64,000 nt of DNA from a virus (taxonomy: Duplodnaviria; Caudoviricetes): positions 14,100 to 78,099 of IMG/VR virus record IMGVR_UViG_2894352420_000001; one strand, given 5' to 3'. Shown here piece after piece: positions 47,847-52,602 of the stretch (positions are counted from its first letter, which is position 1; each line of letters starts with the position of its first letter). The notes beneath the pieces are model-generated. The model worked only from the letters and a program-made list of their open reading frames with translations. It had not been told where the DNA came from and did no database searches. A program made the translations under genes and the position numbers.

Positions 47847-48344
47847 TTAAAGATTTTCGCGCTCGGCCATCACCTCAGACAATGGCCGCATGTTTGCCGG
47901 AATTTCGTCCACTTCTTCTTCCGCAGTGTAAGGGAAAACATCCAGGATCGGCGTCAAATTCATGTCCGTAGTTTCGTAAGGAATTAGCATGGTGCGCAGA
48001 CTTTCGGTGATTCGTTGTAATGCCTGATCAATGCCGTCAGCATTCACTAGCATATAATTAACAACCTTTTTTTCCTTGCCGGATTTTTCATCGACAGAAA
48101 AGTATATCACTTTGGCTTTGAACCACTTTTCGCCATCTTCGTAAGTGAAAAGATCAGCCAGACGCATGCGGGTAATTGATGTGACACTGAAATCACTTGC
48201 ACCGGTTGTTATGCGTTTATATCCGTTTACTTCAGCTTCCGTGTAGGAAACTGCGTCAAACAAATATGCTTCGTTATGCGTTTTTAGACTTCCCGCGCTG
48301 TCTTCTGCCTGGAATCTAATTTTAACTAAATAATAGCTAGCCAT
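47847..48344 (-). CDS. DUF4494-family protein
   Basis: YLVKIRF…YLFDAVSYTEAE…WFKAKV…DEKSGKEK…ILDVFPY. Confidence 0.75.
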   Translation of the reverse strand: MASYYLVKIRFQAEDSAGSLKTHNEAYLFDAVSYTEAEVNGYKRITTGASDFSVTSITRMRLADLFTYEDGEKWFKAKVIYFSVDEKSGKEKKVVNYMLVNADGIDQALQRITESLRTMLIPYETTDMNLTPILDVFPYTAEEEVDEIPANMRPLSEVMAERENL

Positions 48345-48993
48345 GTACTTGTTGTTTTGTTGATCTGTAAGGTTTTATAATTGCTTCACTAAAACTCATG
48401 CGCTGTAATCTATTCCAGAGGGCAGAGCGCGATACTCCTAAGTCTTTTGCCCAATAGGATAGTGGCTTTCTTATTCCATTGTGCTCTAAAAATATGGTTC
48501 TACGAGTATTGTTACTTTGCTCTTCAGTAGTTGCCCACTTGCAATTATCTGGGCAATAGTTTTCATTGACCCTAATTCTTTCAATCGATAAGATATCTGA
48601 ATACCCGTTGCCTGTAGCCCACAAGTGGAAATTCATGTAATCCATCCACTCATCACACATTGTTATCCCGCGCCCTCCATAGTTTTTATACCCTGGCTCA
48701 TTCTGGTTATAACACCTCTTTTTAATTCCTTTCCAAATTGAGTAAAGCCTGTTTTTGCCAGAAACCCTGTTTGATAAACCATGGGTAACGCATCTTTTTA
48801 TGATATTTGATACCCTTTTACATCCGCAGGTTTTAGATTTTCCAGCTTTCAAATCAGCGCCATTTACCGAAATCTGTTTTCCACATGAGCATACGCAAAC
48901 CCACTGAGGTTTTTTAGAATTGCTATATCCGGAGAATTTTATTACCTCCAAGTCGCCAAATTTCTTTCCTTTCAAGTCTGTTATAGTTTTCAT
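48337..48993 (-). CDS. HNH homing-endonuclease-like protein
   Basis: DLKGKKFGDL…CVCSCG…YGGRGITMCDEW…LSIERI…YCPDNCKWAT. Confidence 0.8.
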   Translation of the reverse strand: MKTITDLKGKKFGDLEVIKFSGYSNSKKPQWVCVCSCGKQISVNGADLKAGKSKTCGCKRVSNIIKRCVTHGLSNRVSGKNRLYSIWKGIKKRCYNQNEPGYKNYGGRGITMCDEWMDYMNFHLWATGNGYSDILSIERIRVNENYCPDNCKWATTEEQSNNTRRTIFLEHNGIRKPLSYWAKDLGVSRSALWNRLQRMSFSEAIIKPYRSTKQQVHG

Positions 48994-49062: not shown

Positions 49063-49164
49063 TCAGGTAAATTCGAATCTTTGATTTTCTTTGACAATGG
49101 TTGTCGCAAAAGGGAAATCGGTTTTGGAAACTTGTTCGAGCATACTCTGCAATACTACCGACCA
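49063..49164 (-). pseudogene. 3' remnant of a conserved Bacteroidota phage gene (…SVVLQSMLEQVSKTDFPFATTIVKENQRFEFT*)
   Basis: Read manually; the protein-like C-terminus begins 5 nt after the HNH stop, in another frame. Family recognition is from memory only. Confidence 0.5.
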
Positions 49165-49169
49165 TTCTG

Positions 49170-49772
49170 CTATTCGTAGACAAAATTCGTTTTGTTACTA
49201 CGCTTCCCTGAAAGCATTGCGGTTAGATGATTTCGACTTACCCCAATATGCAAAGCGGCTTCCTTGACGCTATTAAATTTTTGTCCCGTCAAGCTGTCTA
49301 TTACAGAAATAGAACCTTTATGTCCAAAATTTCCCACTTTCAAAGGTGTTTGAATAGCGCTCCCAGAATCCCATCCATTATGTATTCTTCTTCTGATGGT
49401 ATTGTATTTACTTACTGGCCATTTTAATTTTTCAGAAAGAAGTGTTAGTGAAATAAGTTCTCCATCATAATCAACCATTACAGTATTCGACCTATTTGAA
49501 GTATTTACAATCTTGGTAACAAACCTGCAATTCTCTGGATAGTAACCTTTATCATTTTCTTTTCTGTCCAATTCAAGGCCTTGCTCATATCCATTTTCGA
49601 GCGCCCAGTCCCGAAAAACAGTAAAAACCTCCCACTCTGAACAAACGGTAATTCCCTTGTCAAAATAATGCTCACGTCCTTTCCATTTAGACAATACTCT
49701 TTGACGCATAGAAGCCCATTTTTTAAAAAGATCTGTATTGGTTTCACCGTGCATTTCCCTAAACTTTCTCAT
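49170..49772 (-). CDS. HNH homing-endonuclease-like protein with NUMOD1-like C-terminus
   Basis: KGITVCSEW…LELDRKENDKGYYPENCRFVT; FNSVKEAALHIGVS. Confidence 0.8.
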   Translation of the reverse strand: MRKFREMHGETNTDLFKKWASMRQRVLSKWKGREHYFDKGITVCSEWEVFTVFRDWALENGYEQGLELDRKENDKGYYPENCRFVTKIVNTSNRSNTVMVDYDGELISLTLLSEKLKWPVSKYNTIRRRIHNGWDSGSAIQTPLKVGNFGHKGSISVIDSLTGQKFNSVKEAALHIGVSRNHLTAMLSGKRSNKTNFVYE

Positions 49773-49863
49773 ATATCATAAATTAATACAAACAAATGTA
49801 CATCTTTTCTTTTACATTAATTATAAAAATGTACATTTATTTATTTACTTTTTATAAGTACAT

Positions 49864-50076
49864 TTGCATATGGATATAGAGAATTACTTAAAAAATCAGT
49901 CAGATATCAACCTTTCTGGACTAGCAAAGAGAATGTGGCCAAATAATAAGTATGCTGATAATTATTTAAGCAAAAAGTTAAACGGATTAGATGGAAGAAA
50001 ATGGACTAAGAAAGATACCGAGCGGGCTAAAATTGCCTTACAAGAGCTTGGTATCTTTCTTCAACAGTTATCGTAG
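49864..50076 (+). CDS. Small HTH regulator divergent from the HNH gene
   Basis: INLSGLAKRMW…YLSKKLNG; three AATGTACAT-like boxes at 49795-49866. Confidence 0.6.
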   Translation: MHMDIENYLKNQSDINLSGLAKRMWPNNKYADNYLSKKLNGLDGRKWTKKDTERAKIALQELGIFLQQLS

Positions 50077-50114
50077 TTGTAATCGTTGTACGAAAAACTG
50101 GGACTACCTGCAGT
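50066..50114 (-). repeat. DGR template repeat (TR), truncated to 49 nt
   Basis: Aligns ungapped to 50254-50302 with 12 mismatches, all at TR adenines. Confidence 0.9.
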
Positions 50115-50137
50115 CAGCAGCGCACCACCTTGTTTTC

Positions 50138-50644
50138 TTATTCCGAGAATGTCATCCAGGCTTTATATATCTCGACAAATTCCGGTTGAATCGTTGCCCA
50201 TTTCATGGCATCATAATCAAGAAAAACGAGGCGGGCACCGACGAACGAGTACGAGCGAACGTAGCCGTAACCGCGGTACGAAAAACCGGGACCACCCGCA
50301 GCTTCCTCATTCCAGACGAAGTATGGATAATATTTATACTGGCTACTGTCTGAAAAATCGGGTTCCCATCCCTCATTTAGCACTCTTGCGATAATTGTCA
50401 GCTGGTGATAGGCATACAGTGACTCTCGGTCATTTGATGGAATAAATGAAAAGTCGGAGATTGCCAGCGGAATAATATTCAGCTCCTGACAGGCGTCTTG
50501 ATAGGTATCAATGCGATCTATCAGCTTACGGTCAAAATTAAAGTCCGGATAAGACTCTCTCATCCATTTTTTAATCGAAGCTTCTGCATTGTTATATGCT
50601 TTTTGGGCATTGGCCGGTGTCATGGTTAACAATTGTGTTTCCAT
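50138..50644 (-). CDS. DGR target protein carrying the variable repeat (GFSYRGYGYVRSYSFVGARL)
   Basis: VR at ~50225-50302; VGARL ending typical of CLec-type DGR targets. Confidence 0.8.
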   Translation of the reverse strand: METQLLTMTPANAQKAYNNAEASIKKWMRESYPDFNFDRKLIDRIDTYQDACQELNIIPLAISDFSFIPSNDRESLYAYHQLTIIARVLNEGWEPDFSDSSQYKYYPYFVWNEEAAGGPGFSYRGYGYVRSYSFVGARLVFLDYDAMKWATIQPEFVEIYKAWMTFSE

Positions 50645-50682: not shown

Positions 50683-52602
50683 TTACGCAACTTTTGACAA
50701 ATTGGTTTTACCAGACATGGCTTCTGTCCAGGCGCGAACAACATGCGGAACCACAGAATTACCGATAAACTTTTTCTGATCTGATTGATTTCCGGCTAAA
50801 ACGTAATTGGCAGGAAAACCTTGAATTTTTAGAAGTTCAAGAACCTTCAACATTCTCATCTTTATGTCGGCTATTCCGTAGATTGACATGAAAATCTTAA
50901 TCCGCACCATCACTTCCGAATCATCGTCGTAAACCGGAATATTATATTCAGGATCTATTTTAAACTGAATCAAATAAAGAGGGGCCTTATCCTGCCTGGC
51001 TATTATGACAGGGCACGGCCCATTAGTTGACATAGTGTGACCACCATGAGAGGGATTCAAAATAATAGGCTCACAATTAATCAATCTATGCTTATCTATT
51101 GGCATTAAGGTCCCGGCCGGATTTTCAATGGATGAAATATTTCCATTTCCTGTATAGGTTTTATCAAACCAGACTGCCTGTACTTTTGCCAATCGATCTT
51201 TCGTACTTAAAGTGCTGGCAGGTGATTCGATAGAGTTTATATTTTCACCTGTACCATGATATTTAGTTAAAAATGAAGGATTGATTAAAGCTAACTTATC
51301 TTTGCATACCAAAGTCGGCGCAGGTAGCTCAATATCGTTTGTGACACTCGAATGATTATAATTTACCAAATACGGCACTGGCGTCAATAAATATGGGTGA
51401 CGCCTGCTTGAAACCAAAGTTGCAGCAGGTTCATTGATAGATTTTCCAACGTTTTTGAAATTAGTATTCATTACGAAGGGTTTTACATTCACCAGTGCTT
51501 GACCATCAGTGCAAGTTATAGTGCCAGAAGGACCCGTTACTGGGATAACTTTTCCGGCTGGCTTCCCTGAATAATATTTTGCAATGAATGAGGTGTTGAC
51601 CAAACCTAAACGATTTTGGCAAGCTATTGTCGGACAAGGTTCATCAATTGATGGCGGGTTGTGATATCCTTTCCCGTCCGTGGAATTGTATTTCAGTATA
51701 AAAGCTTCTTTCCCGCCAGCCACAAACTTTACAAGTCCCGCATAAATTCTTTCAAGCGATGGATCAACAAGTGGTTTCTTGCGATTAAAAATGGATAATC
51801 CTTCATCTTCGAAATCTAAAACATCTTTAACAGCCTTCCATTTTTTAAGGTCACCAAACATACTTCCGGAAGATGGTTTTTTGCTATGACTTGGCTGTGG
51901 CCATATGATTGGCATGCCAGGTTTTGCGAATACTCCAAATAGTCGGTTTCGGCTTGTATAAGCTCCGAAATCCGCACTGTTCAGCTCCTTCCATTCATCA
52001 CGGTACCCAAAACTGCAAAGATGTTGTTTCCATCGGATCCAGTCCTGACCATTTTTCTTTGAAACTGGTTTTCCATCTTTCATTGGCCCCCAGCTCATAA
52101 ACTCAACAACATTTTCAATCTGGACATAGTCAGGATCCAAAGCGGCAACATACCGGTCCAGGTGATCGGCCAGTGTTCTCGAATCTGCATCGCGCGCTTG
52201 ACCACCCTTTGCTTTGCTAAAATTGGTGCATTCAAGACTTGCCCAAAGGATAATCTTTGCATCCGGATAAGCAGCACGGTAAATTTCAACCAGACGTACC
52301 AGTTGACGCATGTGATCGGTTTGAAAAAGGATCCCGTTAACAACTTGACCATATAATTTTGTAATGTCTTCTAAAAAATGAAGTACATCAGGATGATTCT
52401 TCCAATGTGATTCAATCGCCAAAGGATCATGGTTTACACAGGCAGCAATGCATGCGGCTTTCTGTCCGTTGATCATTGCCATATCAAATCCAGTGGTTGT
52501 GCCTCCTGCTCCGCAAAAAAGATCAATGACGATATATTTTGGGTTGCCCGATTTATTTTTCGAAATGATCATGTTAGTATTGAGATGATTTATATAAAAC
52601 AA
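50683..52602 (-). CDS. C5 DNA cytosine methyltransferase with repeated variable-region units
   Basis: DLFCGAGG, SLECTNFS, IENV, SRNRLF, QGFP, IGNSV. Confidence 0.88.
   Translation of the reverse strand: MFYINHLNTNMIISKNKSGNPKYIVIDLFCGAGGTTTGFDMAMINGQKAACIAACVNHDPLAIESHWKNHPDVLHFLEDITKLYGQVVNGILFQTDHMRQLVRLVEIYRAAYPDAKIILWASLECTNFSKAKGGQARDADSRTLADHLDRYVAALDPDYVQIENVVEFMSWGPMKDGKPVSKKNGQDWIRWKQHLCSFGYRDEWKELNSADFGAYTSRNRLFGVFAKPGMPIIWPQPSHSKKPSSGSMFGDLKKWKAVKDVLDFEDEGLSIFNRKKPLVDPSLERIYAGLVKFVAGGKEAFILKYNSTDGKGYHNPPSIDEPCPTIACQNRLGLVNTSFIAKYYSGKPAGKVIPVTGPSGTITCTDGQALVNVKPFVMNTNFKNVGKSINEPAATLVSSRRHPYLLTPVPYLVNYNHSSVTNDIELPAPTLVCKDKLALINPSFLTKYHGTGENINSIESPASTLSTKDRLAKVQAVWFDKTYTGNGNISSIENPAGTLMPIDKHRLINCEPIILNPSHGGHTMSTNGPCPVIIARQDKAPLYLIQFKIDPEYNIPVYDDDSEVMVRIKIFMSIYGIADIKMRMLKVLELLKIQGFPANYVLAGNQSDQKKFIGNSVVPHVVRAWTEAMSGKTNLSKVA

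Follow-up and report, generated by a model that had tools for sequence, protein, structure and literature searches.

An RT-less template repeat stump, a variable repeat and an HNH endonuclease cassette in a prophage early region: probable wreck of an avd-less diversity-generating retroelement

The window analysed here is a 64-kb stretch (64,000 nucleotides) of phage DNA. The locus described below lies in a prophage early/replication module, and its neighbours encode an SSB, an AAA_24 ATPase, a C5 methylase (50683-52602), a phage DnaN (46600-47757) and a DUF4494 protein. From the target gene to the DUF4494 gene, the features are the following (DGR, diversity-generating retroelement; RT, reverse transcriptase; TR, template repeat; VR, variable repeat):

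50138..50644, minus strand: target gene P0001, an intact ORF of 168 aa (pI 4.7) of an uncharacterised phage early-region family
50233..50302, minus strand: VR of about 70 nt, delimited by alignment to the TR stump and to the TRs of relatives
50115..50137, minus strand: spacer between the target stop codon and the TR, from a comparison of the flanks in the window, L021 and L017
50066..50114, minus strand: TR stump, the 5' 49 nt of an originally ~70-nt TR, from the repeat pair and the comparison with L021 and L017
49864..50076, plus strand: basic 70-aa ORF of the cassette, convergent on the target gene, with no family match
49170..49772, minus strand: HNH homing-endonuclease-like gene, 200 aa (phrog_3377, E 2e-36; phrog_374, E 9e-31)
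49063..49161, minus strand: headless remnant of the ~100-aa post-RT gene, its last 32 codons and stop, from alignment A2
48337..48993, minus strand: second HNH endonuclease gene, 218 aa, 28% identical to the first
47847..48344, minus strand: DUF4494 gene, the synteny anchor (77% aa identity in L017, 69% in L019)

Reading and counting along the minus strand, the TR (50114-50066) aligned without gaps over 49 nt with the first part of the VR (50302-50254). All of the non-A positions of the TR were identical in the VR (34/34), while 12 of its 15 adenines were changed (9 A>G, 2 A>C and 1 A>T); each of the three unchanged adenines lies within a TAC codon. When the TR is read in frame it contains three AAC codons, and all three are altered in the VR, to CGC, GGC and CGC. 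The preliminary description of this DNA had reported mismatches at adenines only and the diversification of every AAC codon, and the recount reproduced both exactly. The similarity between TR and VR ends abruptly at both sides, and the probability that 12 mismatches among 49 sites would all hit the 15 adenines is 4.9e-9. A repeat search of the window recovered the same pair independently. Furthermore, a strict diagonal scan that accepts only positions that are identical or where the TR has an A, run over the whole 64-kb window on both strands, returned exactly one pair, this one, and zero pairs in three shuffles of the window. The VR encodes residues ~115-138 of the intact 168-aa ORF, near its 3' end, and corresponds to the hypervariable block of the family alignment A1, with the invariant GFS motif on one side and the conserved VGAR(L) motif on the other. 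Its part from 50302 to 50254 has a counterpart in the surviving TR stump, whereas the part from 50253 to 50233 has one only in the full-length TRs of relatives.

The closest homologue of the target, P0002 (69% identical to P0001), is encoded on the metagenome contig L021, together with a 70-nt TR and three VRs. The window stump is identical to the L021 TR at 47 of 49 positions up to a break at 50066/50065. After ...GATAACT the window diverges completely from L021; L021 and L017 both go on with CGAACTCGAACGTCAGTGCCC, and the window VR carries on with CGTACTCGTTCGTCGGTGCCC beyond the part matched by the stump. The window TR thus ends 21 nt earlier than those of L021 and L017, and its truncation, already suspected from the window, is borne out. 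When the 21-nt extension of the L021 and L017 TRs was compared with the window VR, all 16 non-A positions were identical and four of the five adenines differed. The restriction to adenines, which mismatches at other bases in an extended alignment with relatives would have contradicted, is therefore maintained, with a composite P of ~2e-12 for the stump plus the 21-nt continuation. As the extension fits the window VR except at four of five adenines, the alignment indicates that this VR was written from a full-length TR, 21 nt longer than the surviving stump. Upstream of the stump, the 15 TR-proximal nucleotides of the spacer at 50115..50137 recur without change in the 5' flank of the L021 TR, a conserved TR leader. 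Downstream of the TR, intact relatives have in common a spacer with a conserved hairpin, and this motif is absent from the window.

The L021 contig is not itself pristine. Its RT ORF has 271 aa and lacks about the last 50 residues, and at L021:980-2216 a long-type target is inverted against the 3' end of the RT, with a 62-nt overlap. The VR of the inverted target still shows 14 A-only differences with respect to the L021 TR, and L021 is thus another rearranged state of the cassette. Since its RT is incomplete and one of its targets inverted, the truncation argument makes use of the L021 TR only; L017, which has a full-length RT, gives the same TR continuation.

A six-frame comparison showed that in L017 and L019 the gene order is targets, TR, RT, ~100-aa gene and DUF4494. 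In the window the order is target, TR stump, 70-aa ORF with the first HNH gene, remnant, second HNH gene and DUF4494. By synteny, the 200-aa HNH gene, which has a weak NUMOD-like tail, takes the place of the TR 3' end and the spacer that follows it, of the RT, and of two thirds of the post-RT gene from its 5' end. On one side of it, the last 11 nt of the 70-aa ORF, including its TAG stop, are TR sequence; on the other, the remnant (49161-49066) ends ...DFPFATTIVKENQRFEFT and can be aligned with the C-terminal third of the A2 family proteins, where it spans the invariant F-P-F and I columns. The second HNH gene sits between the remnant and the DUF4494 gene, the counterparts of which are directly adjacent in L017 and L019. 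DUF4494 was found in RT-bearing and RT-less loci alike, and this distribution places it outside the retroelement. The G+C content falls to 28-29% in 49650-50100, compared with about 40% around it. The altered gene order with respect to L017 and L019 thus suggests that about 1.3 kb was swapped for about 0.9 kb of foreign AT-rich DNA. Within this DNA the HNH gene and the 70-aa ORF are divergent, and the 28%-GC spacer that separates them holds two 25-nt direct repeats starting AAATGTACAT (49794-49851), which may be operators or promoter elements of the cassette.

A source of the HNH cassette, or evidence of its mobility, was sought without success: no close copy was found in IMG/VR, in 61 same-genus genomes or, apart from the 28%-identical neighbour, in its own genome. 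As no close copy was found, it is from the gene content of the cassette that we infer a replacement by homing; a deletion followed by an insertion is equally possible.

The target protein P0001 had no match in Pfam or NCBIfam, and its only profile match, to phrog_11581 (unknown function), covers just the N-terminal part. The exact protein occurs once in a collection of 5.8 billion clusters. Its residues 1-117 match the "long-type" targets (77% identity to P0002 versus 32% to short types), while residues 137-168 are 91% identical to P0013, P0015 and P0016, the "short-type", TR-proximal targets, and do not match the tail of P0002. No other long protein with a tail of this kind was present among the 45 family ORFs parsed. 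By this comparison P0001 is a chimera of a long-type and a short-type target, joined in or near the VR, and the simplest cause of the hybrid is a recombination between two tandem VRs.

The members of the target family have about 130-170 aa, are acidic, are encoded in an early/replication module and have no signal peptide apparent by eye. Helices make up most of the AF2 model of P0001 (pLDDT 81.7), in which the VR loop has a low confidence. An identity as a C-type lectin or Ig domain was considered and found no Pfam or Foldseek PDB support: no CLec Pfam family matched any of 25 family members at E<=1, and the target model gave only Foldseek matches with E>2 against the PDB and a best Z of 4.0 in the VIA wide search. 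As the VR region was poorly modelled, the target might still be a reduced C-type lectin. The structures neighbouring the target model in BFVD and in the ESM Atlas belong to phage proteins without a characterised function, those of BFVD including proteins of crAss-like phages.

A further refuting condition put forward with the preliminary description was that no homologue of the target be linked to an RT. A DGR-type RT was found within 5 kb of the target homologue in 51 of 80 IMG/VR loci (the 80 include near-duplicates, and these counts are descriptive) and also in L003, L017, L019 and L021. Of the 51 RT-linked loci, 49 have TRs of 65-88 nt with A-only mismatches to one to three VRs. In the remaining 29 of the 80 viral loci the homologue has no RT or TR within 5 kb; therefore its members also occur with no diversifier linked to them, or serve as remote targets.

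The arrangement of intact relatives is illustrated by L003, from a Chitinophaga MAG, where a 71-nt TR and then a 327-aa RT containing the motif IGNYLSQ come after two tandem target homologues; this TR shows 16 A-only mismatches, 11 of which are A>G. The same-genus genomes G020 (L017) and G027 (L019) harbor two and three targets, respectively, each set with a TR and an RT. No avd ORF was identified in L003, L017 or L019, and there is no room for one between target, TR and RT. The best solved relative of the family RTs is 8ub7 (E 5e-58), a 328-aa "Reverse transcriptase" which we take to be the Bordetella phage enzyme. Their phage matches include Bordetella phages and many crAss-like phages (50-58% identity). 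Against NCBIfam, which holds no DGR-specific model, they gave only sub-threshold matches to group II, retron and DRT models.

In 41 of the 55 RT-bearing loci, a gene of ~100 aa starts between -1 and +27 nt from the RT stop codon (e.g. L019:10441-10752 and L003:7998-8294, plus 39 further loci), and it was found in none of the 36 RT-less loci. Its product is basic (pI 9-9.7) and had no sequence match in Pfam or the PDB. The AF2 model (pLDDT 91.5) is OB-fold-like, with SSB/PriB-type matches of weak score (Z 4-6.4). We rejected its identification as Avd, as it lacks a Pfam or PDB sequence match and the fold search returned only these weak OB-fold matches and no helical bundle. Considering its model and its position, this protein may be an accessory factor of the avd-less DGR lineage.

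According to the preliminary description no RT remained at the locus, and a search of the genome for a DGR RT or a full TR was proposed. The genome searched is a 7.39-Mb assembly of 54 contigs with a marker completeness of 100%, and it contains neither. PF00078 detected a single RT in the whole genome, a DRT2 defence RT, and the L003 RT used as a query found nothing besides it; an HMM built from 42 family RTs likewise identified no DGR RT among all six-frame ORFs of at least 50 aa. A marginal RT match of 52 aa upstream of recN was spurious on inspection. No second TR was found in the 7.39-Mb assembly by BLAST or by the scan for identical or TR=A positions, as a genome-wide scan with the 75-nt VR matched only the VR itself and the stump. 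An RT could in principle still lie in an unassembled gap of this 54-contig draft. The DRT2-type RT (504 aa, PADLOC E 1.5e-136) is located on a different contig from the locus (G000 contig C51:338694-342122, L001) and has a PD-T4-5-like gene immediately downstream.

Altered states were also observed in other members of the lineage. A second relic of the same DGR lineage, with two targets, is present at L047:797-1800 (IMGVR_UViG_3300049491_001217). Its TR stump of 42 nt (1722-1763) compares with a VR at 1142-1183, with 30 non-A positions identical and nine adenines changed. A clean deletion has brought the stump right up against the final ~10 codons of the post-RT gene, without any HNH gene, and this relic arose independently of that in the window. 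In G027, the TR (L019:9121-9371) lies beside a full-length RT, contains only 3-4 adenines and matches the VR of the target next to it at every one of 70 nt (100% identity). It looks as if this TR had been overwritten by VR-like sequence, which, if true, would blunt mutagenesis without gene loss. Other candidates from the relic scan were discarded: the matches in L048, L063 and L073 turned out to be tandem repeats of 27 nt, and in L081, a locus that has an RT, the TR/VR run is broken by non-A mismatches.

Together, these results led us to interpret the locus, with a probability of roughly 0.9, as the wreck of a DGR from an avd-less lineage of Bacteroidota phages, now unable to diversify its own target. 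In its ancestral layout, the element would have comprised tandem small targets, a ~70-nt TR, a spacer with a hairpin, an RT of ~330 aa and the ~100-aa basic gene. At this intact stage A-mutagenised cDNA of the full-length TR would have been written into the target VR, as suggested by the A-only pattern over about 70 nt. Comparison with relatives points to three later rearrangements, for which no order is implied: two tandem targets would have been fused into one hybrid gene, most simply through VR-VR recombination; the ~900-bp cassette carrying the 70-aa ORF and the first HNH gene would have displaced a segment running from the last 21 nt of the TR, through the spacer and the whole RT, into the post-RT gene, of which about two thirds was lost; and the second HNH gene would have been inserted beside it. 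Among the features of a functional DGR, the locus has an A-only TR/VR pair and a VR in the 3' part of an open target with AAC-templated codons, and it lacks a DGR-type RT and a complete TR with its 3' end and downstream spacer. As both the RT and the complete TR are missing, the locus is a relic and not a functional DGR, which agrees with the reading put forward from the window alone and is reinforced by the RT-linked homologues and the extended A-restricted alignment. Without an RT, the priming region of the spacer and the 3' end of the TR, no cDNA would be produced from the locus, and the VR would be fixed at its last variant in a target gene that is intact and presumably still functional. 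Renewed change of the VR would require a full TR-RNA and an RT, both provided in trans by a related phage. The earlier claim of a frozen VR consequently stands for the genome as assembled, where the sequence suggests it, and not as a general statement, since a superinfecting relative could rewrite it in trans.

Continued diversification in trans, by an RT encoded at another place in the cell or by a related phage that enters it, nevertheless deserves consideration, and we regard it as unlikely. DGRs do reach remote targets: one of the three VRs of L021 is inverted, and the VRs of L023 and L070 are 2.7-3.9 kb away from their TRs. Moreover, TRs such as those of L021 and L017 would be homologous to the window VR at both ends. 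In phage BPP-1, however, cDNA synthesis is primed at A56 of the spacer, which lies downstream of the TR, and starts at the TR 3' end (PMC5703328), and it is this end, with the spacer, that the stump has lost; the assembly offers no DGR RT or full TR to replace them, its only RT being the DRT2 defence enzyme. The supply of both by a superinfecting phage is possible but hypothetical.

The pair itself could be read as an ordinary duplication or a chance similarity with a coincidental adenine pattern, given that the repeat is short (49 nt) and that nine of the 12 changes are A>G transitions. This reading has practically no credit in view of the P of ~5e-9, of a pair that is single in the window and has no equivalent in shuffled sequence, and of a stump 47/49 identical to a bona fide TR beside an RT; as for the transitions, an equal A>G bias exists in intact relatives (11/16 in L003). 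Finally, the breakpoints might reflect an assembly chimera of two phage variants, the DGR of the real prophage being intact, as this is a draft genome of 54 contigs and phage mosaics can confuse assemblers. We consider this very improbable: the window (C23:61431-125430) places the locus deep inside the longest contig, of ~597 kb (596,665), the remnants on both flanks of the cassette match and have the expected order and orientation, the assembly contains no RT or TR reads elsewhere, and the independent relic in L047 shows the same kind of deletion.

If our interpretation of the locus as a DGR wreck is right, it offers a nucleotide-resolved view of the death of a DGR, in which the template was truncated, the RT replaced and the tandem targets fused. 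It also draws attention to a common but unannotated target family of the early region of Bacteroidota phages, with no Pfam and no PDB fold match, and to a small basic RT-linked gene that may be the missing accessory factor of avd-less DGRs. Catalogues of DGRs are anchored on the RT, so that dead elements and once-diversified proteins go largely uncounted; it is reasonable to expect, as had been anticipated, that RT-anchored finders would miss this locus, while DGRscan is reported to be able to find incomplete cassettes (Wu et al., PMC5758913). A further, doubtful possibility is that the lineage represents a distinct kind of phage DGR, which diversifies small acidic cytoplasmic proteins of the early region and in which a small basic OB-fold-like protein replaces Avd. 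Its targets, with a fold not seen in the PDB, would then not be virion receptor-binding proteins and might bind host factors that vary, for instance proteins of defence or replication; three natural switch-off routes that lock in a chosen variant would then be represented by the window, L047 and G027.

Compared with the prototype, the BPP-1 DGR (mtd-avd-TR-brt), the element shares the A-specific TR/VR changes, the AAC codons of the TR and the location of the VR at the target's 3' end, and the RTs of its family are homologous to solved and phage DGR RTs. In contrast to BPP-1, the window has no RT and no spacer, its TR is missing the 3' third, and the lineage lacks avd. In addition, the target is an acidic early/replication-module protein of 130-170 aa and not a tail-fibre C-type lectin, and there is no long GC-rich IMH, as the TR/VR homology stops about 6-11 nt past the last templated A.

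The intact relatives more closely resemble the avd-less DGRs of Architecture A and Lineage 3/3a of Wu et al. (PMC5758913), with target(s), TR and RT on one strand, often two to three targets, and Bacteroidota hosts and phages. Going by this likeness, the lineage would belong to Architecture A/Lineage 3 of those authors. The same paper (PMC5758913) describes an accessory gene of avd-less DGRs, "CH1", of 160-169 aa and pI 4.7; judging from that description, "CH1" could be the long-type target or the DUF4494 gene of our loci. As for crAss-like phages, their RTs are among the nearest annotated phage RTs (50-58% identical) and their uncharacterised proteins among the BFVD structural neighbours of the target. 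The published crAss-like DGR is reported to have a tail-associated target gene (PMC7290462); with respect to that account, the window differs in lying in the replication module of a temperate prophage.

RT-less remnants of DGRs are already known as a kind, since one was reported earlier in Nostoc PCC 7120, where all3226 keeps its TR-VR homology with no RT gene or pseudogene nearby (Vallota-Eastman et al. 2020, PMC7517822), and its authors suggested that the diversifier was removed once a variant had been selected. The window resembles all3226 in that a variable-protein gene retains TR-VR homology without an RT (PMC7517822). It differs from it in being phage-borne, in its target family, and in that the breakpoints, the replacing DNA and the ancestral state can be defined to the nucleotide from relatives. 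What this locus adds is therefore the nucleotide-level breakpoints, the replacing endonuclease cassette and a reconstructable ancestral state, together with an unannotated target family, a putative accessory gene and, given the second independent relic in L047, a loss of DGRs that appears to be recurrent in the same lineage.
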